In this document: positions 11,598 to 59,698 of the stretch, in pieces | How the letters are laid out: every line of letters starts with the position of its first letter | Numbering within the stretch: the first letter of the stretch is position 1 | Assembly: GCA_963677485.1 (NCBI GenBank) | Contig: OY781964.1 | Location: 2,656,001 to 2,720,000, forward strand | DNA from: Armatimonadota bacterium | Lineage (GTDB): Bacteria; Armatimonadota; HRBIN16 | Direction: 5' to 3' | Length of the DNA stretch: 64,000 nt | Notes under the pieces: model-generated | Databases searched by the model: none | What the model saw: the letters and a program-made list of their open reading frames with translations, nothing else | What the model was told of the DNA's origin: nothing | Translations under genes and position numbers: made by a program

Positions 11598-11689
11598 GCG
11601 GGACGCTGCTAGCCGCACATAGGACAGATCGGGCCGAACCGCAGCCCAGTAGGGGCAGGCACAGGGGCCTGCCCCTTGTATGCTTATAG

Positions 11690-11891
11690 ATGGAGGTCCT
11701 CAGACCTTAACCCAAAACTTGAGGACCATCCTCACACCGGGACGCTGGGGTGAAAGAGAAGGGGTAGATGCCGTCGCGCCCCTTGTAGCTTTGACTACGC
11801 GACGTAGAATGGCACCCTTCTCTGCAATGACCTAACACGAACAGTATCATGGGCTAAAGCCCGCATTTACAAGGATGTCAAGGTTGATTGC
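11690..11891 (+). ncRNA. Predicted bridge RNA of IS110 element A (ends approximate)
   Basis: Two 5' hairpins, target-binding loop with guides cgcgcccct (11775-83) and gacgtag (11801-07), donor-binding loop with acagtatca (11841-49) and tacaag (11868-73); covaries with the element B RNA. Confidence 0.85.
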
Positions 11892-12443
11892 TTCACCTGT
11901 GTCCCTAACTAGGAGCATACCGGACTATGCAAATCAATGGCAACTCGTACAGCTACTACGCTGGGATCGACATATCTAAAGACACTTTCGACGTGTCGGT
12001 CGTTGATCAAGACGGCACCCATCTGATCCACAAGCAGTTTGTGAACAACCAGAAAGGCTTCAAAGAGCTGGTGTCACTCACCAGGAAGCAAGGCTGGATG
12101 CCTGTGTTATTCGCAATGGAAGGCACTGGCGGATGTGAGCAAAAGCTGCTTGACTACCTGTATAAGCATAAGCAGGCAGTCTCACGGCAAGAACCCTGTC
12201 GAATACACTATCATCGCCTCTCACAAGGATCTCGGCAAAAGACAGACTATGTAGACAGCCTGATCATTGCTGACTACGCACTAAAGAACCGCCTGCGGCT
12301 CTATGTCGCTAATCGGGTTACACTATACCAGCCCATTCGGCATGTGTGAGCCACCCATGTTCGGCATGACTATACCACTCTAGCCGTGTTTCGATGCCCC
12401 TGACCGCCTAAATGATAGACACAGTTTTATCAGGAGGGCATAC

Positions 12444-14003
12444 ATGGAAAGGCTAAGAATGCAGATCATAGAAGAGATCATATTCCGACTGCGGCGTGGG
12501 CAGTCCCAACGAGCGATTTCTCGTGACACGGGCTGCGCTCGTAACACCGTCAGCCAATACGCACAGTGGGCTTCTCGACTTGGATACCTGGCTCCAGATT
12601 CAGATATGCCGAGTATGGAGGCATTTCGTGACACCTTACCGCAGCGCAAACGACGCAGTAATGTGTCTAGTGCTGAACCATACCGCGAAATCATCGAGAC
12701 CTATCTCCAGACTCACATAGAGGCAGTGACCATCCACAACAACCTCAAACGACTATACGGGTTTACCGGTAGCTACTCTTCGGTTATTCGCTTCATTAAC
12801 GGACTGACCCCCAAAGAGCAGTTGGCCATTATACGTCTAGAGACAGACCCAGGAAAACAGGCCCAGGTTGACTTCGGATTTGTGGGGCAAATGAAGGACC
12901 CCGCAACAGGCAAGATGCGTTCAACGTATGCCTTCTTGATGACGCTATCACACTCTCGACATCAATATGTGGAGTTTGTATTCAATCAAAGGATACCCAC
13001 ATGGGTGAACTGCCATATCAACGCCTTTGAATTCTTCGGAGGCGTTCCAGAGGAACTTGTGATAGACAATCTAAAGTCAGCGGTTCTCAAAGCAGATATA
13101 TACGACCCTGTCATCTCGGAGCCGTATCGGCAACTGGCCTTGCACTACGACTTCCTCATTCATCCGTGTAGAGTGAGAACCCCGGAGCATAAAGGAAAAG
13201 TGGAAAACGGGGTTCATTACGTGCAGCGAAACTTCATTGCAGGCCGGGAGTTCATGGATATCGACGAAGCGAACCTGCTTGTGAAGACCTGGATCACCCA
13301 AGAGGCAGGTCTGCGTAACCATGGAACCACACATAAACAGCCATTGGCGCAGTTCAATCAGGTAGAGAAGAGCACGCTTAAGTCATTACCAGACACGGAA
13401 TTTGATCTCATTGAAGTTCGTAGTGCGAAAGTCCATCGGGACTGTCATGTTACAGTGTATGGTTCTTACTATTCCGTGCCCTACAGCTACATAGGCAGCC
13501 AAATGGACGTGCATCTGCACGAACGAGTGGTGCAGATATATGATAACGACCATAAACTAGTTGGAACACATCAAAGAGCGACACAACAAGGGCAGCGCAT
13601 TACCCGCATGACTGATTACCCAACACATAAAGTGGCCTATATGGTTCTTTCAATCGAGAATTGCCTGGAATTAGGGCATGACATCGGCCCCAGTTGTGTT
13701 ACGGTGCTTAATGCTTTGCTGGCTGACAGGCCTGTAGACCGAAGACAATCCGTGAAGAGGATCGTCCGGCTAGTTCAAACGTACAGCAGTAGTCGCCTGG
13801 AAGCGGCCTGCGCACGCTCTCTCTATTACCAAGATGGTAGTTACCAACGCATTGCTAAGATACTGAGGGCCGGTACAGATCACGAGCCAATGGGAATAAC
13901 ATCTTCTCTTCCCCCTAAAAAAGACTACCTCTTCGCTCGTAGTGCCGACGAATTCATTTTGGTCAGTAATGCTGACACCAATATGGAGGTAGAAGCGTGT
14001 TAA
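12444..14003 (+). CDS. istA: IS21 transposase
   Basis: N-terminal HTH, ETDPGKQAQVDFG, IDNLKS, KGKVEN (DDE), YSVP. Confidence 0.95.
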   Translation: MERLRMQIIEEIIFRLRRGQSQRAISRDTGCARNTVSQYAQWASRLGYLAPDSDMPSMEAFRDTLPQRKRRSNVSSAEPYREIIETYLQTHIEAVTIHNNLKRLYGFTGSYSSVIRFINGLTPKEQLAIIRLETDPGKQAQVDFGFVGQMKDPATGKMRSTYAFLMTLSHSRHQYVEFVFNQRIPTWVNCHINAFEFFGGVPEELVIDNLKSAVLKADIYDPVISEPYRQLALHYDFLIHPCRVRTPEHKGKVENGVHYVQRNFIAGREFMDIDEANLLVKTWITQEAGLRNHGTTHKQPLAQFNQVEKSTLKSLPDTEFDLIEVRSAKVHRDCHVTVYGSYYSVPYSYIGSQMDVHLHERVVQIYDNDHKLVGTHQRATQQGQRITRMTDYPTHKVAYMVLSIENCLELGHDIGPSCVTVLNALLADRPVDRRQSVKRIVRLVQTYSSSRLEAACARSLYYQDGSYQRIAKILRAGTDHEPMGITSSLPPKKDYLFARSADEFILVSNADTNMEVEAC

Positions 14004-14764
14004 CTCACACACTGCTACCCAAGCTCAGGCAACTCAGATGGTCTGGCATGGTTGATAGCCTCGAAGAGAGAGCGGAGCTAGCCCGTGAGCAAAAGCTCTC
14101 ACCAACGGAGTTCCTTGCGTTATTAGTAGATGATGAGCTTGAGCGACGCAGCCAAACTAAACAGGTAAAGATGGAGAAGGCGGCCTGTTTCGAGAACACG
14201 AAACTGCTGTCCCACTTCGACTTCAACGCTGTACCTACCCTTGATCGTTCGCTGGTAAGGGAGATGGCGACCTGCCAGTTAATCGCTCAACATGCCAACT
14301 GGCTGGTGTGTGGTCCCACTGGTGTGGGCAAGACACATCTAGCCACCGCCATAGGTTATGAGGCCATTAAGCGAAGCTACAGTGTTTATAACAGTTCTGT
14401 CCACAAGTTGCAACAGGAGATGTTTGCGGCCAGGGCAGACGATGCTTATACGCGGTTGATTAAGAAATTGGTCAACGTTGACCTCCTGATACTCGACGAC
14501 TTTGGTCTTCGCCCCATCACAATTCAGGGAGCGGAAGACCTCTACGAGATCATCCACCAGAGATACGAGAAGGGCAGTATTGTATTGACATCTAATCGGG
14601 CTCCCTCCGAATGGCCGGAGATGTTTGGCGACTCTCTTCTCGCTTCAGCTGCTATGGACAGATTGACTCACCATGCCCGGGTGACTGTTGTCACCGGTGA
14701 GAGCTATCGCCAAAGGCAGCGCAGAGGGGAGGTAAGCAAGCCGGATAATGCATCCGTAGAGTGA
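13997..14764 (+). CDS. istB: IS21 AAA+ helper ATPase
   Basis: GPTGVGKTHLA Walker A, LLILDDFG Walker B, TSN, DRLTHH; overlaps the istA stop. Confidence 0.95.
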   Translation: MLTHTLLPKLRQLRWSGMVDSLEERAELAREQKLSPTEFLALLVDDELERRSQTKQVKMEKAACFENTKLLSHFDFNAVPTLDRSLVREMATCQLIAQHANWLVCGPTGVGKTHLATAIGYEAIKRSYSVYNSSVHKLQQEMFAARADDAYTRLIKKLVNVDLLILDDFGLRPITIQGAEDLYEIIHQRYEKGSIVLTSNRAPSEWPEMFGDSLLASAAMDRLTHHARVTVVTGESYRQRQRRGEVSKPDNASVE

Positions 14765-16340
14765 GATACCGACGCATCCAACACTTACATTGGGCAATGA
14801 ACACGAACTAGTCAAGTGGTATACATATGCCGAACATGGGTGGTAGTAATAAGGTGACTATTGACAGCTCTACATTCCTAAAGGCGAAAGCTATCGGGCG
14901 CTGCAGGAGATCGGTCGCACACGGCGCATGCTGGTCAGACACCGGAACTCCCTGCAGCAGAGGCACTCTCACGCGCAGAACCTGCATGCCAAAGCGGTTC
15001 TTCAACGCAGCATAGATCACTGCACAGAGGATATCGATCTTTTGAACTCCGCGGCTGCTGAGATTATCGCCAGCAATGACAGGCTAGCGGAAGATTATCG
15101 CCTCCTGAACAGTATTCCGGGTGTAGGTGATATCACATCCAACTACTTTCTAGGGCTCATCGGTGATATATCTTGCTTTGCGACGTCTGCGAAGATAATC
15201 CGATTTGTGGGTATGAACCCATGCCCGCACCAGTCAGGAACCAGCATCGATTCCGAAAGCAGCATATCCAAAATGGGCGATCCCTACATGCGCTCCTTGT
15301 TATACACCAGTGCCATGGCTGTATTACATATGGTGGATCACAATTCGAAAGCACTCCATCCCAGCATGTATCGGTTCGTGGCCAAAATGCGGGAGAGATT
15401 CGGCCCGAGTTCTAGCAGGAAGGTCGTATGCGCGGTGATGCGCAAGCTGCTGATCTTGATGTGGGCTGTGTTGACCAGGCGTAAGGTTTACGATCCGTGC
15501 TACGGACTAGAGCCGCAGGATGCTCCGGCCAACCAGACACCGCAATCCGACGACACTGGCCTTGTCCAGTCTCGTGCCGAAGCGGCCTCAGATTTTGCCG
15601 GCGAAGGCAATGATGCTGGGCAGGACAGTGGCGTTCCAGGATTGGGATGTCTGGATGGATAGCCACCGTGTGGTTCATCCTTGGCCCCAAGTGGTTGAGC
15701 AGCATTCCAGAGCCGGCGAGTCAGCGGTAGAAAGATATGATCACCACTAGCTAGCTGCTCTTGATCTAGCCGCTAAAATTAACATCATTAGAACGTTATC
15801 TTTAAAGCCTCAAAGATGCGGGGTGGGCGTTCATCACTACGGATGACGGGCAACCCTTTGCATAACGGTGCATCTTCGCGTGGGACCGGCTTGTGCTATG
15901 AGCTTGGGTATACCTAAGGTCTATTTGCCACATTGCATAATATAAACGTTGTCCGCAGAACGTTATGGGCATAAATCTGGTATTTCGGACAAATACCAGA
16001 TTTCACCCTCGGAGGCCTTGACAAATAACACAGTATCTACGTCATGCGCCATGTCCTATCGCCCCCCCCAAATCTGCGCCATCTGCGTAATCTGTGGATT
16101 GAATCCCCCTCCAACAAGAATTGCATGGGGACCTGCCTGAGAAGCAATGGTGAAACTCCCGCCACAGAACGTAGCTCCGCTATAATAGAACTGACTAAAA
16201 GCCCAAACAAGCGCAAACAGCAAGCATAGCAACAACTTAGCCTTGAATAAGTCGCGGTGCGATGTGCCGCTGTATTATCAACTGCACCGCGACGGTAATG
16301 ACCAATGACCTTTACAGGAGCTGCGTAGCAACAGGAGATT

Positions 16341-52172: not shown

Positions 52173-54347
52173 TTAGTAACCCTTCAGCAGGGGCTTGATT
52201 TCGTCAGCGATCAACTGTTTGTAGTGCTGAGCCTCGTTCTGCTCGAACTGGCCCCCAAGCTTCTGAACACCATCGGCTGCCCCAAGATAACCCAGCCACA
52301 GCGTGTCACGCTGCAGCCATACGGCCTCGCGTGCCATCATAGTGGGCGTGACCAGCAGACTGAGTATCAGCACGCTGCCCGCCCATAGGCTGGCCAGCCG
52401 CCGGTTGAGGGCACCGAAATACCGGCTGTAAAGTGACATGGCGTACAGCCCAATGATCACGCTGCCTGCCAGCATCACCCATCCCGCGATGAACTGAGCC
52501 ATCGACACGATGTTTGCCATCATGTCGGTGTTTGGGTCATTCGAGAAGATGAGCCAGAAGCCAATCAACACGCAGCCATACCCGATGATTGCGTATTTCA
52601 GCTCAAGGCGTGCATCTGGCGTGCCGATGCCCAGATCCCGGCAGCGTTTGCGTGTTTGCTGCCACTCCAACACCATTGGGGTCAGCAACAGCAGGGCACC
52701 AGGTATGACCCACCAGAAGGAAGCAGACTTAAGCAGGCTGGTCTCTGTGAGCACCACAACAAGAAGGGCGGGAGCCAGCACGAAAGTGAGCAGCCGGATA
52801 CGCATCATCTTCCAGTCCGGCAGCAGGAATAACACCCGTTCACAACGGTAGGCCCCTACCACCATCCAGATGAAGGCCAGTATACTGCTCAAAATTAACA
52901 ACAAGGCGAAGACGGATGTCCACACCATCACGAGGGTTTCACCAGCCAGCTGGCTCTGTACCCGCTTGAGCGGGGTAAGCTGCGCGACACTGACTCCGGG
53001 GTAATATACATCGAGATCCTTGAACTCGAAGGGCAGAATGTCGATGCGCTTAGCATCTGCCTCGGCTTGTTTTTCTGTCGGCTCGAGTTTGACAGATAAC
53101 ACGGTGCGGCCATGCGCACTACTCGCTTGCTGCTTCGCCACTTGTTTTTGAAAGCGGCTGGGATACGCTGGCCTAATAAGCCGATCACTGTCGTTGAGAA
53201 AGCTGTTGCAGGCGTAGTATGATAACGTTTGTCTAGGTCTATAGTTGGAGTTCTCCGATTTCATTACATTTAGCTTCAAGGATTGTTGCACTACCCGCTC
53301 GGCAGTGGCATACTGGCCTTGTTCAGCCAGGTAGCGCACTAAGGTGCCGATGTTTTGATCGTTCATTGACCAAGAACTGTCAATCTGGCGAGCAAAAAAC
53401 CAGCGTGACAGATATTGCTCGTAGTAACGAGGTTGAGGCAGACGCTGCAGCATCCTTAGGTTAAACTCATCGGTGTAGTCGTCAAAGCGAGGCTTCTTTG
53501 AGGCTTCTTCCAGCAGTATCAAACAGCGTTCCAGTCCAGCCAGGCTGCTTATTTTGGTGCCAGGTTCAATTCGAGCAACCAAAGGTAGAAACGCCTTACT
53601 AAATTGCACCTTTAGCATGAGCATAGGGTAGAGTGCGTTGTCTGGGTCCTTCTGCATACCGATCGCAATGAATTTCAGGTAGTCTGCCGGGGTGATGGAG
53701 CCTTGTGCATAATAAGTCGAGTTGCCCCCTGGGGTGTTGGATATTATATTCCGTTTTGGGTTGAATACCACTTCGGAACCCACCAGGAAGTAAGCCAGCA
53801 TTTTGAGGGCTTCAGGCTCATGACTGTGCTTCTGCCAGTACTCTTTGAATCGCTCGGTGCGGAATGCATTCTTGTGGTTCTCTGGTATATCGATCTTACC
53901 GACGGCGTAGAAGTCGGCATGAGGAGGCGCAAACACCGAATAGGCAGGGAGGCGGAACTCGTCGGTCGTGACGGTCTGCGGATCGATCTGTACCTCGCGC
54001 TGGGCCTCTTGAATACCACCCAACCGCAGAAAACCTAAAGCCAGGCCTGCCAGCAGCATCACCGGCACCAGCACCCAACTGATCATGATGCGGGCCAGGC
54101 TGCGCAGAGTCATCCTGCGGCTGTTGGCGGTCAGTAGTTGGTCAGCCAGCTCTGCGGGTGGTCCAAACTGCGCCACGGTCTGCTCTTGGGCTTCCTCCGG
54201 GGACAGCTTCAGTTCAGAGCTTAGCTCCGCGGCACTCTCCTCCAGGTGGCTCATCAGCTCCTGACGCACATCCAAAAGCAGCTCATGGTCAGCTTTCAAG
54301 CCTTCGGTGGCTTGGTCAACCAGCTTCTGGAAGGGGCTTGTATCCAT
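52173..54347 (-). CDS. Membrane protein with N-terminal HAAS/permease-prefix helical domain (copy 1)
   Basis: RQELMSHLEE...FGPPAELA, TM, large loop, multi-TM C-terminus; coupled to padR. Confidence 0.75.
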   Translation of the reverse strand: MDTSPFQKLVDQATEGLKADHELLLDVRQELMSHLEESAAELSSELKLSPEEAQEQTVAQFGPPAELADQLLTANSRRMTLRSLARIMISWVLVPVMLLAGLALGFLRLGGIQEAQREVQIDPQTVTTDEFRLPAYSVFAPPHADFYAVGKIDIPENHKNAFRTERFKEYWQKHSHEPEALKMLAYFLVGSEVVFNPKRNIISNTPGGNSTYYAQGSITPADYLKFIAIGMQKDPDNALYPMLMLKVQFSKAFLPLVARIEPGTKISSLAGLERCLILLEEASKKPRFDDYTDEFNLRMLQRLPQPRYYEQYLSRWFFARQIDSSWSMNDQNIGTLVRYLAEQGQYATAERVVQQSLKLNVMKSENSNYRPRQTLSYYACNSFLNDSDRLIRPAYPSRFQKQVAKQQASSAHGRTVLSVKLEPTEKQAEADAKRIDILPFEFKDLDVYYPGVSVAQLTPLKRVQSQLAGETLVMVWTSVFALLLILSSILAFIWMVVGAYRCERVLFLLPDWKMMRIRLLTFVLAPALLVVVLTETSLLKSASFWWVIPGALLLLTPMVLEWQQTRKRCRDLGIGTPDARLELKYAIIGYGCVLIGFWLIFSNDPNTDMMANIVSMAQFIAGWVMLAGSVIIGLYAMSLYSRYFGALNRRLASLWAGSVLILSLLVTPTMMAREAVWLQRDTLWLGYLGAADGVQKLGGQFEQNEAQHYKQLIADEIKPLLKGY

Positions 54348-54348
54348 C

Positions 54349-54687
54349 TTAGGCCTCCTGCAGCAGTAACACTGAGTTCACGTTTGTGGTATAGTTCTTC
54401 CAATCCTTCAAGCGTGTCTGCAGGCTCTCCAGGCCCGCCGGCGTGATGCTGTAGTACCGACGCGGCCTGTTGTAACCGTGCACCTCCACCCATTCGCACT
54501 GCAGTTGCCCGCACGACGCCAGCTTGTGCAGCACAGGGTATAGACTCCCCTCCTTCCACTTAAACTCGCCTTCGGTGCGTTCATTCACGAGTTTGATGAT
54601 CTGGTAGCCGTACATCTTTTCTTCTGATAGCATCTTGAGCACCATCATCTCGATGGCACTCGCCAGATAGTCAGCATGGTTTGCCAT
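54349..54687 (-). CDS. PadR family regulator (copy 1)
   Basis: MYGYQI, EGSLYPVLHKL, RRYYSIT..G. Confidence 0.93.
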   Translation of the reverse strand: MANHADYLASAIEMMVLKMLSEEKMYGYQIIKLVNERTEGEFKWKEGSLYPVLHKLASCGQLQCEWVEVHGYNRPRRYYSITPAGLESLQTRLKDWKNYTTNVNSVLLLQEA

Positions 54688-54702
54688 TTGGTCGCCTCCG
54701 AA

Positions 54703-54721
54703 TACTTTGATGTTCTAAGTA
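54703..54721. promoter_or_regulatory. Putative PadR operator
   Basis: Imperfect palindrome tactttga-tgt-tctaagta just upstream of the RBS; conserved at 59714-59732. Confidence 0.55.
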
Positions 54722-54812
54722 TACTATGCATAGATATAGAAAGTATAGTGGCGAATGAAAATCTGGTATATTTGCTGGCTGGGTGGAGCGACATAGGGCG
54801 AACGGCGGTCAC

Positions 54813-55209
54813 CCTTCCCCTCACCATCCGCGTCATCCGTGGTTCAGACAAATAACCGCGGATGAACGCCGATGAACGCAGATGGGAACCGGAACTGCCT
54901 CACGCGAAGACGCGAAGGCGTGAAGTGAACACCGTTGCCTGAACGGCCCCTACCGGGGCGGAGATGGCCTGCACCATCGATCCGACGGATGGTCTGGCGT
55001 AGGGGCGGGGTCACCCCGCCCCAGGGTGCGGAAATCGTGCCCCTACACATCGTCCGGCGGTAGGGGAGAACGGCGTTTCCTTCCCCTCACCATCCGCGTC
55101 ATCCGTGGTTCAGACAAATAACCGCGGATGAACGCCGATGAACGCAGATGGGAACCGGAACTGCCTCACGCGAAGACGCGAAGGCGTGAAGTGAACACCG
55201 TTGCCTGAA
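54813..55209. repeat. 131-bp perfect direct repeat (54813-54943 and 55079-55209)
   Basis: ccttcccctcaccatccgcg...ccgttgcctgaa repeated at a 266-bp period, with imperfect continuation. Confidence 0.9.
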
Positions 55210-55557
55210 TGGCCATGACCGGATCGGTGATGGCCAGCACCATCGATCCGACGGATGGGACGAATCGGACAGATGGTCTGGCGTAGATACTGTGGCTTTT
55301 GTCAAGTCCCCAGGGGCAAATCTGGGGATTTGGACCTGAATATCAGACACTGGCTCTAGACCACGTAGAATAACGTTAATGTGATGTTTGTGGCATATAG
55401 ACCAAACCTGGATCCGCGACAGAAACAGGCTCAGATGGCATCAGTTGGTCCGTAGCACCTCACATGACGCTCGGAGTCGCGAACGGACGTGCGACATCTT
55501 CGTGGCTTCGAAAGATATCGTTATGCTTCGATGCGTGCTATCGGCAGACTGCCGCAG

Positions 55558-56850
55558 CTAGGATACTGGTGTCAGAACCCTCGGTTTGTTGCCCACCCGA
55601 CTGCGCGATGGCCGGTTTCGGGATGCGGGCCGACCACCGCCGGCAGGAGTGGGCTCATTGGTGGGATTTCCATCCACGCATCCCCGTCTTGGAACGCTCA
55701 CGTCCAGCCCAGGATCATTGCCTACACCGGCTATATCATGGGCCGCTCCGGCACGATCCTGGACATGTCCGTTCGCGTCGGTCAGCGGTTGCTGGTTGGC
55801 CGCATTTGAAGCTTGTTCGATGCCGAAGTTTGGATCATATGGCTGACGGCTGATTAATACCGACCACATGAGCACCAGCTGCTTGCGCATGATTGCGCAC
55901 CGGACAACTCGCTTGGACTTCGGTTTCTTATTGGGATTCTTTACCAAATTCGGATGCTGCAGTTCCTTCACGAAGTCGTGCATGCTCTGGCCAAGCTTTT
56001 TCGACTTACCGTTGACCATCTTCACCACAGTGCTCGATCCACAGTAGAGTAATGTCCGCATATATCGGTCACCCATCTTGGATATGGAGCCGTCGTATGT
56101 CTTGCAGCTTCCTGACCGTTGCGGGCAGGGGTTCATTCCGAAATAGCGCGCGACCGCTTTCGATGTTTCAAATCGTTTAGCATCACCGATTTTCGCAAGG
56201 AAATAGCTTGCTGTGACGTCGCCGATACCCGGAATGCTCTTCAGCAGAGCCATATCTTCGGTCATCTGCGGTGAACTCATCACAAGCTCTTTGATCTGAA
56301 CATCAAGCTTTTTGATGCCCATGTCATGAAAAGCGATCATCTCGTCCAGCACTGTGCTCCGCGTAAGCCGACAGCTTTGGCGCTGGGCGATCGCCTGTCT
56401 GTGTTGCACCAGCATACGGCGGTCATTGGTGTAACCAATAAGCGCATCATAGCATGCTAGACGAGGGACATAGAGTGAGACATTGTGACTTTTCACATAG
56501 TCAGCGATTAGCACGCTGTCAGAGCAGTCCGTCTTTTGTTCCCAGCCTTTGGCTTTGCGGTGATAGAGAACCCGTTTTGGCTCCAGTTGGACAGCATCGT
56601 GCTGGTGCTCGTAGAGGTAATCAAGCAGCGGTCGGCTGTAAGGCCCGGTGGCTTCAGCCGCATACAAGGCGGGAGTTCGGGTAAGCTTCTTCACCCATGA
56701 CAACAACTCCTTGTATCCGGCCTTGTTGTTCTTGAACTCCTTATGGTCTATCGGCTTGTGCGATGAACCTAATACAGACGCGTCAAACGTCAATTTCGAG
56801 ATGTCGATCCCGACATAATGGATGTAGATTTTGTCTTCAACTTCGTGCAT
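55558..56850 (-). CDS. IS110 DEDD bridge recombinase
   Basis: GIDISK, AEATG, KTDCSD, SIPGIG, PQRSGS (catalytic Ser); start MHEVED after RBS ggag. Confidence 0.93.
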   Translation of the reverse strand: MHEVEDKIYIHYVGIDISKLTFDASVLGSSHKPIDHKEFKNNKAGYKELLSWVKKLTRTPALYAAEATGPYSRPLLDYLYEHQHDAVQLEPKRVLYHRKAKGWEQKTDCSDSVLIADYVKSHNVSLYVPRLACYDALIGYTNDRRMLVQHRQAIAQRQSCRLTRSTVLDEMIAFHDMGIKKLDVQIKELVMSSPQMTEDMALLKSIPGIGDVTASYFLAKIGDAKRFETSKAVARYFGMNPCPQRSGSCKTYDGSISKMGDRYMRTLLYCGSSTVVKMVNGKSKKLGQSMHDFVKELQHPNLVKNPNKKPKSKRVVRCAIMRKQLVLMWSVLISRQPYDPNFGIEQASNAANQQPLTDANGHVQDRAGAAHDIAGVGNDPGLDVSVPRRGCVDGNPTNEPTPAGGGRPASRNRPSRSRVGNKPRVLTPVS

Positions 56851-56882
56851 GTGGTAATCTCCAGTTGGTAGTGATTGATGGT

Positions 56883-57082
56883 GCAATCAACCAAATCAGC
56901 CTAGCGAACACGGGGTTTTCTCCCAAGATACTGTTCGATATGGGTTGATTGGGAGAAGGATGCCTATCTACGTCACGGTGTTTTCCACCAGGGGCGGTTC
57001 CGGCATCCAATCCTTCTCCTTCACCCCCAGCTAAGGGGTGAGATTAGCTCCCCGACTGCTTTTGGTGTCCGGGGAGCTCACC
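56883..57082 (-). ncRNA. Predicted bridge RNA of IS110 element B (ends approximate)
   Basis: Target guides accgcccct (56998-90) and gacgtag (56974-68); donor guides acagtatct (56934-26) and cgctag (56906-01); same fold as the element A RNA. Confidence 0.87.
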
Positions 57083-57189
57083 ATATATAGCGTACTAGGG
57101 GCGGGGTCACCCCGAATCAGGGCGCGGAGACCGCGCCCCACACATCGTCCTGCGGGGCGCGGTCTCCGCGCCCTGGGTGATGAAGCCCT

Positions 57190-59358
57190 TTACGGGTTGA
57201 TGGAACCCGTCGCCGATGGGTCGCCTGTCAGCTTACCCATGCTGTCATGGATAAGTTGATTGGTGTGCTGGGTAAGGTTCTGCTGGAACCGCCCCTCCAA
57301 CTGTTTCACTCCACCCGGTGCGCCAAGATGCCCCAGCATGAGGGTGTCGCGTTGAAGCCATGTGGCCTCACGTGAAAGCATCCAGGGAGTAATCAGCAGG
57401 CTGAGTATCAACACACTGCCTGCCCATAGACTGGCCAGACGGCGGTTGAGCGCGCTGTAGTACCGGACGTAAAGCGACATGCCGTACAGCCCGCCCATCA
57501 CTCCGCCAATCATCAAACTCCATCCGATCACGAACCTCACCAGCGCCATGCTAGAACCGATGGCCTCATAATCCTGGTTGATGGAGCGGTACAGCACGTA
57601 GCCTATCACAATACTGCCAACACAGATGATCTTTGCGATCAGCTCACGAACGGCCTTTGGAGTCGCGATACCCAACTCATGGCACCGTCTGCGGGTTAGC
57701 GTCCACTCGTAAAGGGCGGGGATTCCGATCAGCAGCACGGCCGGGATGGCCCACATGACAGAGGCCTGTTTGATCCAGCCAAACTCCGCCATCACGGCGA
57801 CAAGGGCTCCCGGTATGAATACGCCGAATATCAGCGTGTTCCGAAGCCGGATCCAGTCTGGCAGCAGGATCAACACCCGTTGACCACGGAAGAGACCGAC
57901 GATGCTCCATATGATCGCCAGCAGTGTGCTCAGCACGAGCAGCAGCGCAAAGGCGGTCTGCCAGATCATGATCAGTGTCTCCGAAGCCAGCACACTCTGA
58001 AGCTTTTGCAGTGGTTTCAATTGGTCGAGGTTCAGTCCCCGGAAGTAGGCTGGATTGCGAATAATGGAAGCCGGAATGATATCCACTTTTTTGGCAGTTT
58101 CCTGCACAAGCCGTTCCGTTGGGTTCAACCCATCAGCGCGGTCGGTGGAGGCACCCGCTTTCGATTTCAAGATCTGGTCTATCTGCTGCGAGTAGCTGGT
58201 TGGTTTGATCTTGTTGACATAGTTGGTGTAGCCTTTCAGCAGTCCGATGCTGGTCGAATAGATCACGCTCTTGCGTTTTTCGATATTGGAACTGTCGGCC
58301 AGCAGCAGGTTGATTTTCATCGCTTGCTGAGTCAGCCGCTCGCAACCAGCCGCATCTCCTTTAGTTTGGAGATATTGCAGCACGCGCCAGGTGTAGCTGT
58401 CGAGACTTGATGCTGTCGTATTGATCTGGTCCACAACGGCCTCACGTGAGAGATACTGCTCGTAATATCTGGGTTTCGGCAGACGTTGGAGCATCTTGAT
58501 CCGAAATTCGTCGGTGTAGTCGCTGTAGCGAGGTTTGGACGCCGCAAGAGCCATCATTTTGAGGCCTGCATCCAGATCGGGCTGGCTGGAAAACTCGTAA
58601 CTTTGGATCAAACCAGCCTTTGGCTTAAACGCCTTCTGCAGGTAGACCTGCGCCATCAAGACTGGGTAGAGCGCGTTATCGGGATCTTTCTCCATGCCGA
58701 TGTTGACGAACTTGAGGTAGTCTGCCGGTGCGAGGCTCTCGTTGTCTTGAGGCGCCGCGGGGCCAGGTGTCGGCTCAAACGCCACGTGTGAGCCGACCAG
58801 GAAATAAGCCAGCATATGCAATGCGTCCGGATCATTCTGATGCTGCTGCCAGTATGTCTTGAACCGGTCTGTCTGATATCTAAATCGCTGGTTCTCCGGT
58901 GCGTCGATATTCAGCACCGTTTGCAAGTCTTTTGCTGGAGGAGCAAATACGGAGTAAGCAGGTAGAATCAAACCAGGTTCGATCGGCGCGGAGCGTATCT
59001 TGGCATCATTTTGCATCACGCGGATCGCGCCAAGCCGCGACACCCCCAAAGCCAGCCCAGCCAATAACATGACGGGTATCAGCAGCCAGCAGATCAGTAT
59101 TCGTGCGACGTGACGCCTGGACATCCGGTGCCTGTTGGCCTCAAATAACTGATCGGCCACCTCTACGGGTGAGCCGAAATGTGCTTCGGCCTGTGTCACG
59201 ACCTCGTCGGGAGTGACCGCCGGGTCAGCAGCCAACTCTCCAGCGCTCTCTTCGAGGTGACCGAGTAGCTCTTGCTGCACATCAAGCAGCAACTCATGGT
59301 CGCCTTTAAGTCCTTCAGTGGCCTGGTCCACCAGCTTCTGGAAGGGGTTGTTGCTCAT
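57190..59358 (-). CDS. Membrane protein with N-terminal HAAS/permease-prefix domain (copy 2)
   Basis: Homologous to 52173-54347 (PFQKLVDQATEGLK, KDPDNALYP, ALNRRLASLWAGS). Confidence 0.75.
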   Translation of the reverse strand: MSNNPFQKLVDQATEGLKGDHELLLDVQQELLGHLEESAGELAADPAVTPDEVVTQAEAHFGSPVEVADQLFEANRHRMSRRHVARILICWLLIPVMLLAGLALGVSRLGAIRVMQNDAKIRSAPIEPGLILPAYSVFAPPAKDLQTVLNIDAPENQRFRYQTDRFKTYWQQHQNDPDALHMLAYFLVGSHVAFEPTPGPAAPQDNESLAPADYLKFVNIGMEKDPDNALYPVLMAQVYLQKAFKPKAGLIQSYEFSSQPDLDAGLKMMALAASKPRYSDYTDEFRIKMLQRLPKPRYYEQYLSREAVVDQINTTASSLDSYTWRVLQYLQTKGDAAGCERLTQQAMKINLLLADSSNIEKRKSVIYSTSIGLLKGYTNYVNKIKPTSYSQQIDQILKSKAGASTDRADGLNPTERLVQETAKKVDIIPASIIRNPAYFRGLNLDQLKPLQKLQSVLASETLIMIWQTAFALLLVLSTLLAIIWSIVGLFRGQRVLILLPDWIRLRNTLIFGVFIPGALVAVMAEFGWIKQASVMWAIPAVLLIGIPALYEWTLTRRRCHELGIATPKAVRELIAKIICVGSIVIGYVLYRSINQDYEAIGSSMALVRFVIGWSLMIGGVMGGLYGMSLYVRYYSALNRRLASLWAGSVLILSLLITPWMLSREATWLQRDTLMLGHLGAPGGVKQLEGRFQQNLTQHTNQLIHDSMGKLTGDPSATGSINP

Positions 59359-59359
59359 T

Positions 59360-59698
59360 CTATGCCCCCTGTAACAGCATGACTGCATTCACGTTGGCGG
59401 AGTAGCTCTTCCAATCCTTCAGGCGGGTTTGAAGGCTCTCAAGTCCTGCTGTCGTGATACTGTAGTATCGTCGCGGTCTGTTATATCCGGGCACTTCCAC
59501 CCATTCACATTGGAGTTGACCGCAGGACGCCAGCTTGTGTAAAACCGGATAGAGGCTTCCCTCTTTCCACTTGAACTCACCATCGGTCCGTTCATTCACG
59601 AGCTTGATGATTTGATAGCCATACATCTTTTCTTCCGATAGCATCTTGAGCACCATCATCTCGATGGCACTCGCGAGATAGTCAGCATGGTTAGCCAT
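59360..59698 (-). CDS. PadR family regulator (copy 2)
   Basis: 103/112 residues identical to copy 1. Confidence 0.93.
   Translation of the reverse strand: MANHADYLASAIEMMVLKMLSEEKMYGYQIIKLVNERTDGEFKWKEGSLYPVLHKLASCGQLQCEWVEVPGYNRPRRYYSITTAGLESLQTRLKDWKSYSANVNAVMLLQGA

Follow-up and report, generated by a model that had tools for sequence, protein, structure and literature searches.

The closest described system to the element analyzed here, an IS110-family insertion sequence in a 64,000-nt stretch of an Armatimonadota genome (contig OY781964.1; the whole stretch is called the window, and coordinates are window positions unless marked as genome positions), is IS621 from Escherichia coli (Durrant 2024, PMC11208160; Hiraizumi 2024, PMC11208158), for which the use of a bridge RNA has been shown experimentally. 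In the available text of these reports, the left target guide (LTG) and left donor guide (LDG) of the RNA carry the sense of the left target and left donor (LD) including the core, with the LDG spanning the LD and the first core base, and the right target guide (RTG) and right donor guide (RDG) are complementary to the core plus the right target or right donor (RD). The RDG places nine bases on seven, with two looped out and one G.T pair. On the 3' side of both the RTG and the RDG lie two handshake bases, which pair with the other DNA at its positions 7 and 6. A junction promoter and a dependence on read-through transcription in the chromosome are described for IS621 in the same reports and in section 5 of PMC13626964. 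A second point of comparison is provided by ISPpu10 and ISPpu9 from Pseudomonas putida (10.64898/2026.03.19.712850, PMC12288879), which are described as inserting beside the GC-rich stem-loop of repetitive extragenic palindromic (REP) sequences; for ISPpu10, this stem-loop is reported as a "second key", and ISPpu9 carries extra 3' sequence (the ssr9 module).

The window element, referred to as element A, is very probably an autonomous, IS621-like insertion sequence of the IS110 group that is guided by RNA to REP hairpins. It is a new orthologue of a system well described since 2024 and not a new kind, a judgement made without the supplementary orthologue tables of Durrant. As one more natural bridge recombinase orthologue with a fully readable guide code, from the little-studied phylum Armatimonadota, it is useful for tool mining and unsurprising. 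The best named relatives of the genome's ribosomal protein L2, at 70-72% identity, come from Armatimonadota/Chthonomonadales MAGs, which places the host coarsely.

Anatomy of the element and its predicted bridge RNA

The element comprises 1,814 bp including the CT at each end and, read on the minus strand, starts with CT-AGTACGC and finishes with ACAGTAT-CT. Its parts are as follows.

55285..57098, minus strand: whole IS110-family element; 12 genome copies have exactly these ends
57097..57098, minus strand: left CT core, common to 12/12 left junctions
57090..57096, minus strand: RD AGTACGC, the first left-end bases, pairing with the RDG in the 9-on-7 scheme of IS621
55558..56850, minus strand: recombinase gene, 430 aa (Pfam, structure match, alignment, AlphaFold model)
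55285..55557, minus strand: non-coding right end, 273 nt past the stop codon (read from the sequence, copy comparison)
55293-55287, minus strand: LD ACAGTAT, within the right end (read from the sequence)
55286-55285, minus strand: right CT core (read from the sequence, copy comparison)

The recombinase gene is the only long open reading frame (ORF) of the element (56850..55558) and is preceded, 9 nt upstream, by a putative ribosome-binding site, GGAG, at 56862-56859. The encoded protein has an N-terminal RuvC-like DEDD domain (PF01548, E 1.8e-21) and a C-terminal Tnp domain (PF02371, E 4.4e-22), and the solved structures closest to it are the IS621 transposase 8wt6 (E 2.5e-28) and ISCro4 9t56 (E 5e-26). 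Residues D16, E66, D108, D111 and S246 were found to be invariant in 40 of 40 aligned homologues and align with the DEDD residues and serine of IS621. S246 lies in the sequence QRSGS and aligns with the ESGS serine of IS621, which the chain numbering of the structure suggests to be S241. The AlphaFold model is confident over residues 6-344.

Twelve full copies of the element are present in the 5.22 Mb single-contig genome, and the ORF is intact in ten. Ten copies are 1,814 bp long, with six variable single-base columns among them, and no copy carries more than two single-base differences; the RNA region is identical in all 12. In public assemblies the element appears as a collapsed unitig (55284-57103) at about 10x the depth of its flanks. 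Two copies (genome positions 1369194-1370991 and 1871159-1872956) have in common a 16-bp deletion inside the ORF which frameshifts the recombinase and leaves RNA and ends intact, and the occurrence of the same deletion at two loci suggests that a defective copy was mobilized in trans. Each of the 12 copies has the same ends, CT on each side and unrelated DNA beyond. As expected of the IS110 group, there is no duplication beyond the CT in any copy and the ends are not inverted repeats. The element thus appears intact and recently active, and its anatomy and recent spread, together with the guide-site matches in the 12 copies and the covariation in relatives described below, are observations of this analysis.

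For the 235 nt that precede the ORF, a folding energy of -88 kcal/mol was obtained (z = -3.95), and none of 200 shuffled sequences was equally stable. The predicted fold consists of two 5' hairpins followed by two long stem-loops with large internal loops, a target-binding loop (TBL) and a donor-binding loop (DBL), in which the guides could be located.

57046..57078, minus strand: 5' hairpin 1 (predicted fold and consensus), kept in relatives B-E
57021..57041, minus strand: 5' hairpin 2, the extra one (predicted fold and consensus); the IS621-like contigs L054 and L057 have a single 5' hairpin
56951..57019, minus strand: TBL stem-loop (predicted fold and consensus; covariance model R1)
56990..56998, minus strand: LTG ACCGCCCCU (DNA ACCGCCCCT), pairing with left target and core
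56968-56974, minus strand: RTG GAC-GUAG, with a GU linker before it, pairing with core and right target
56971-56968, minus strand: GUAG/GTAG part of the RTG, complementary to CT+AC, which is present in 11 of 12 right flanks
56967-56966, minus strand: handshake AU 3' of the RTG, complementary to donor positions 7 and 6 (T, A)
56885..56950, minus strand: DBL stem-loop (predicted fold and consensus; covariance model R1)
56926..56934, minus strand: LDG ACAGUAUCU (DNA ACAGTATCT; also written ACAGUAUC(U)), identical to the right-end terminus ACAGTAT-CT
56901-56909, minus strand: RDG GUUCGCUAG (DNA GTTCGCTAG), with a GU linker before it, pairing with CTAGTAC
56900-56899, minus strand: handshake GC 3' of the RDG, whose G pairs with target C7

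Each of the guide rules published for IS621, as given above, was recovered in the window element position for position. The RDG would pair as G:C14, U:A13, [U,C looped out], G.T12, C:G11, U:A10, A:T9 and G:C8. When the left end was shuffled 200,000 times, the LTG 9-mer occurred 205 times and the LDG 9-mer 161 times, and both together never.

In common with IS621, the element has a DEDD + Ser recombinase and a left-end RNA with target and donor loops, a CT core, a 9-nt LTG, a GUAG RTG with an AU handshake, an 8+1-nt LDG for ACAGTAT-C, a 9-on-7 RDG with a G.T pair, the junction-promoter logic and the foot of a REP hairpin (CTAC) as target, as far as these are described for IS621. The proteins share 28-30% identity over the core. 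IS621 has one 5' hairpin in contrast to two in the window element, and an RD of TGTAT in place of AGTAC; the relatives B-E have TGTAT like IS621. Set against IS621, the window element is further marked by its 1.8 kb, a disordered tail of about 86 aa, an embedded hairpin, the 273-nt right end and its Armatimonadota host. Size alone is unremarkable, since a 2026 preprint (10.64898/2026.08.14.744561) reports, in its available part, widely varying sizes and extended non-coding parts for IS110 elements. The layout of the IS1111-group seekRNA, a guide RNA from the right end, downstream of the recombinase gene, was not found, both guide loops lying upstream of that gene.

These results largely bear out a first-pass annotation of the window, which had described from the sequence an intact IS110 element at 55285-57098 with a DEDD+Ser recombinase, about 200 nt upstream of it folding into two 5' hairpins and two bulged stem-loops, an extra 5' hairpin and a longer right end relative to IS621, the IS621 bridge-RNA architecture, and a CT core without target-site duplication; all of these parts were found again. 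Its loop 1 guides, accgcccct and gacgtag, need qualification, as the LTG and the GTAG match the insertion sites and the GAC extension is at best weakly reflected there. In loop 2, acagtatct is indeed the right terminus, whereas in place of the proposed cgctag we prefer the 9-nt GUUCGCUAG, which would pair with CTAGTAC in a discontiguous manner. The annotation had also called the recombinase new and probably active. "New" holds in the sense of a new orthologue, and the element is probably active because of the 12 near-identical copies, the 16-bp-deletion derivative at two loci and an occupancy that tracks guide complementarity.

Insertion sites and related elements

The window copy is flanked on the left by CCCGCCC-CT (57105-57097) and on the right by CT-ACGCC (55286-55280). 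Its left flank and an intact counterpart could be delimited.

57099..57120, minus strand: left flank of the window copy, a REP2-like hairpin ggggtgaCCCCGCCC whose 3' arm is the left target (sequence, copy comparison)
54996..55012, minus strand: uninterrupted paralogous target gaCCCCGCCC-CT-ACGCC in the next tandem repeat unit (sequence, alignment)

When the flanks of the window copy were joined in silico at one CT, they aligned without gaps across the insertion point with the unit at 55012-54996, which substantiates the uninterrupted target copy that had been noted nearby. Across the genome, all 12 insertions, the mismatched ones included, lie just 3' of a hairpin. Ten sit at the base of the REP1 palindrome GGGCGnTTCGCGAAnCGCCC, which bears GTAG/CTAC on one side, in line with the earlier claim that the element is aimed at GTAG REPs; of the other two, the window copy is at the REP2-type hairpin ggggtgaCCCCGCCC and one is at another GC hairpin. 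The insertion of all 12 copies against a hairpin resembles what is described for ISPpu10 and ISPpu9, a likeness drawn by description, and occupancy suggests a role of the hairpin for the window element.

The seven bases to the left of the CT are ACCGCCC, equal to the LTG, in six of the 12 copies; five have one mismatch (ATCGCCC three times, AACGCCC, CCCGCCC) and one has three. On the right, the flank begins with AC in 11 copies and with AT in one, and the right target is conserved across the 12 copies only as CT+AC. The target predicted by the guides is the consensus of the other copies, AACCGCCC-CT-AC, a REP1 hairpin, and the window copy, with its one mismatch, was inserted into another REP class. 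A census of occupied and free sites gave the following counts; the P values take REP copies as independent, which they are not, and significance is overstated.

Perfect 11-mer ACCGCCCCTAC: occupied 6, free 3
REP1 with T or A at position 2: occupied 4, free 16 (Fisher P = 0.03 versus perfect)
REP2 CCCGCCC-CTAC: occupied 1, free 44 (P = 2e-5 versus perfect)
Strict REP1 AACCGCCC with core CT: occupied 5, free 1
Strict REP1 AACCGCCC with core TT: occupied 0, free 7 (P = 0.005 versus core CT)

Occupancy declines with guide mismatches, in the direction that RNA guidance predicts. The mismatched insertions are next to hairpins as well, in agreement with the "second key" that the stem-loop is reported to be for ISPpu10. 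The 12 insertions, the free-site census and five related elements form a natural experiment that is of more use than the orthologue as such, and together provide an in-genome specificity profile, with perfect sites nearly saturated, a CT core required and a hairpin beside every insertion, which agrees with the measurements on IS621 and ISPpu10.

Protein searches returned seven clusters covering the whole 430 aa (95-41% identity), the next matches being proteins of about 320 aa with about 30% identity. Four relatives with 41-45% protein identity to A were compared at the DNA level: element B, with nine copies in the sister genome G001 (42%), element C, with two copies in this genome (45%), and elements D and E from the metagenome contigs L125 and L126. 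All share with A the two 5' hairpins, both loops, the tail, the 3' hairpin and the terminus CACAGTAT-CT, and they differ from A in their left-target guides, REP targets and RD (TGTAT). Guides and flanks compare as follows.

Element A: guide ACCGCCC, flank ACCGCCC
Element B: guide GTCATCC, flank GTCATCC (consensus of nine copies)
Element C: guide CGCGCCC, flank CGCGCCC
Element D: guide GTGGCCC, flank GTTGCCC
Element E: guide CGTGCCC, flank CATGCCC

As read from these sequences, the left-target guides differ among the four relatives and each tracks its own flank. On the donor side, the left ends of B-E start with TGTATGC and their RDGs read ...A(U/A)(U/A)UACAAG; the two RD changes of A (positions 10 and 14, noted versus relative C) are matched in the RDG of A. 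A consensus RNA structure over the five relatives has 62 pairs, nine of them compensatory. The covariation is drawn from B-E, because the metagenome scan did not return the 61-95% identical P0001-P0005.

One of the type-C copies lies in the window itself, at about 11675-15719 on the plus strand, with the LTG CGCGCCC and an insertion at ggggcctgCCC-CT. In this copy the recombinase gene is interrupted by an element of IS21 type, which has an IstA-like gene (12444-14003) and an IstB-like gene (13997-14764), both named by protein appearance.

The two loops were also turned into a covariance model (R1), with which 100 other loci were searched. Full-length matches were found directly upstream of five distant IS110 genes of 22-27% identity (L134, L147, L058, L061, L135; E 1.2e-6 to 1e-3), next to a match on a copy of relative B (L055; E 7.8e-35) and two weak ones (L088 and L149; E 0.28 and 0.5). 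The IS621-like contigs L054 and L057, when read by eye, have the same guide logic.

Besides the overstated significance of the occupancy counts, several results weigh against an RNA-guided, IS621-like element. R1 gave no match at E <= 1 on L054 and L057, and the link to the IS621 RNA therefore draws on comparison with the published text and on reading by eye. The first-pass annotation had proposed folding the region and aligning it against bridge-RNA covariance models, of which the fold came out as proposed (z = -3.95, see above) and the Rfam scan of 54500-57600 returned no match inside the element at E <= 1, which says little. The extended RTG (GAC) is hardly mirrored in the sites, position 12 of the right flank being G in five of 12 copies, and the three-mismatch copy and the AT copy indicate that pairing is not the sole determinant of insertion. 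Finally, no circle junction was present in the contigs of four public runs, contigs being uninformative on circles or expression.

With RNA expression, RNA-protein binding, the circle and the chemistry taken over from IS621, the element would work as follows. The DEDD/Ser recombinase would be the enzyme of the element, and a bridge RNA of about 200 nt from its left end would hold the two DNAs together. In the target loop, ACCGCCCCU and GUAG would pair with both strands of ACCGCCC-CT-AC, a target site formed by the 3' arm of a REP hairpin and its GTAG/CTAC foot; in the donor loop, ACAGUAUC(U) and GUUCGCUAG would pair with the joined ends ACAGTAT-CT-AGTAC of the excised circle. Strand exchange at the shared CT would then yield an element flanked by CT alone. 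The joined ends would also create TTGACA-17-TACGCT before the RNA, and RNA from the chromosomal copy would rely on read-through transcription. In coordinates, the RE-CT-LE joint (right end, core, left end) would align TTGACA (55305-55300), a 17-nt spacer and TACGCT (57094-57089) as a putative promoter with TACGCT as its -10, a match in sequence only, and the relatives show the same layout (TTGACA-17-TATGCT). No sigma-70-like promoter was found on the sense strand of the element, which fits a junction promoter and read-through as reported for IS621. An ORF ending at 57190 runs in the same direction as the window copy.

Element-free stubs and rival explanations

A number of REP sites carry a trace of an IS110 left end. 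These stubs consist of a REP hairpin, CT and the first 7 nt of an IS110 left end, followed by unrelated DNA and no element. This genome has seven A-type stubs (CT-AGTACG(C/T); genome positions 264922, 1990840, 2010709, 2382961, 2851066, 2869711 and 3436709) and five C-type stubs (CT-TGTATGC; genome positions 1083737, 1378729, 1658459, 2307947 and 3495662). Seven of 2,736 non-element GCCCCT sites are followed by (A/T)GTA(C/T)GC, compared to an expectation of about 0.5 (P = 1e-6). In the sister genome G001 there are six B-type stubs and, though it is without an A element, eight A-type stubs (loci of both types together: L160, L162-L165, L171 and L179-L186). In three other relatives, stubs were not enriched over a reversed-pattern control. 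Four of the eight A-type stubs of G001 are at loci orthologous to A copies of this genome, and two of these four, both with the right flank ACGC, equal the in-silico empty site plus 3 nt; the remaining stub loci lie in REP arrays too diverged for orthologous comparison.

Sites that are 3 nt longer are unaccounted for by the published model. The simplest reading may be that the element was lost between the T-ACGC of its left end and the core T + ACGC, leaving AGT, and either the recombinase (with a GT pseudo-core, the RTG being complementary to TACG at both places) or plain microhomology may be behind the loss. In such an event, the RTG or microhomology would align the left-end T-ACGC (bases 5-9, pseudo-core GT) with the core T + ACGC, the element would be lost, and the 3 nt that remain (AGT or TGT) would turn the site into a poor target (CT-AG versus CT-AC). 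That bridge recombinases have a second, offset route of excision, of which the stubs would be the scars, is a tentative proposal, which we hold to be possible and rather unlikely. If true, REP sites would keep a readable record of past insertions even after loss of the element, and the scars would be informative about element loss and about how faithful bridge editing is. In the literature searched, including the available parts of 10.64898/2026.08.14.744561 and section 5 of PMC13626964, scars of this kind were not found described.

Other origins of the stubs were considered and rejected. As non-autonomous mini-elements they should have a right-end partner, and none was present within 20 kb, other copies of the insertion sequence aside. 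A REP-associated Y1 transposase that copies the REP together with 9 nt was rejected since no REP1 or REP2 lies within 1.2 kb of the Y1_Tnp genes, and also because the conservation flanking free REP1 stops at CTAC. Crossover at a second CT (left-end bases 9-10) fits one of the 12 stubs of this genome, and RDG-templated synthesis would yield CTAGCGAAC, which was not seen. The genome has three Y1_Tnp (PF01797) genes, at genome positions 376078, 2992049 and 4121913, encoding candidate REP-associated or IS200-type transposases.

The stubs also bear on where the element ends. If its true boundaries were shifted by 3 nt, the target would be the REP flank CTAGTACGC (the stub form), the crossover would fall in TAC and the AGT would be host-derived. 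TAC is likewise common to both junctions (left AG-TAC-GC, right TC-TAC), and element-free REP-CT-AGTACGC sites number seven in this genome and eight in the sister genome, where four of the eight are orthologous to occupied loci. However, the LTG reads ...CCCCU and then GG, not CCCCUAG, and the right flank continues as ACGC in 3/12 copies (the window copy and those at genome positions 1066324 and 2165500) versus 14/15 stubs, with AT in one copy. The neighbouring tandem unit, moreover, reads CT-ACGCC without AGT, and in relatives and IS621-like elements a homologous (T/A)GTA(T/C) stands at the start and is read by the RDG of the element concerned. Shifted boundaries are therefore considered very improbable, and the CT is retained as the core.

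An RNA-free view, in which the guide-like matches are subterminal repeats at the DNA level (protein-binding sites or leftovers of target capture), corresponds to the usual reading of IS110 ends before 2024, and the public runs, kept as contigs only, yielded no transcript that would contradict it. It does not account for matches placed on the 5' and 3' sides of internal loops in two conserved stem-loops with compensatory changes, nor for an orientation that follows the published RNA scheme (LTG and LDG sense, RTG and RDG antisense), and IS621 has been shown to use exactly such an RNA; we give it hardly any credence. Similarly slight is the chance that the family is extinct here, its copies being relics that owe their spread to segmental duplication or gene conversion. 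The two frameshifted copies and the missing circle junction in contigs would agree with extinction, whereas the ORF is intact in ten copies, the RNA region is identical in all 12, and G001, about 85-90% identical in the flanking DNA, is without any copy of element A. As the flanks beyond the REP hairpin differ in every copy, the copies are not segmental duplicates. An intact, RNA-guided element thus remains the preferred reading.

Tail, embedded hairpin and neighbourhood

The recombinase continues past its confidently modelled core into a C-terminal tail, and the DNA encoding it contains a predicted hairpin.

55561..55818, minus strand: C-terminal tail, aa 345-430 (about 86 aa), clade-specific and predicted disordered (predicted local distance difference test, pLDDT, <50; cluster search)
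55687..55781, minus strand: conserved hairpin of about 95 nt in the tail-coding DNA (32 predicted pairs, five compensatory, over five sequences)

In the protein searches the tail occurs solely in the seven protein clusters of the element's clade. No relatives outside its own cluster were found among 1.84 billion representatives, bar one marginal low-complexity match, and this together with the pLDDT below 50 led us to reject a folded domain. In a relative with 61% identity, the tail has indels that leave its reading frame intact. The coding DNA of the mid-tail is among the best-conserved stretches between A and B-E and is without third-position bias, variable sites being distributed 17/25/18 by codon phase compared to 42/36/62 in the core. 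An antisense ORF (55464-55853) was rejected as the cause of this conservation, the 17/25/18 distribution not being significant. Conservation in all frames is instead explained by the hairpin at 55687-55781, which belongs to no known RNA family and has no visible matches to the target or the element ends. A hairpin embedded in DNA that encodes a disordered tail is unaccounted for by the published IS621 model. The extra 3' sequence recalls the ssr9 module described for ISPpu9; no stand-alone module matching the 3' part of the window element was found in the rest of the genome. Taken together with the excision-scar reading, if that is true, the 3' hairpin and the tail would make this clade a variant worth bench work.

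The insertion of the window copy sits in a tandem array of intergenic units of about 270 bp (54820-55284 and 57099-57190, minus strand), each with two GC hairpins, CTAC and a CATCCGTG-rich tail. Sub-threshold Rfam matches to radC RNA in the repeat units (26.5 and 24.2 bits against a cut-off of 40) were treated as chance. The array is flanked by ORFs for paralogous membrane proteins of 724 and 732 aa with similar N- and C-termini (52173-54347 and 57190-59388, minus strand), and a 112-aa ORF (54349-54687), a PadR-type regulator by appearance only, precedes the 724-aa ORF.

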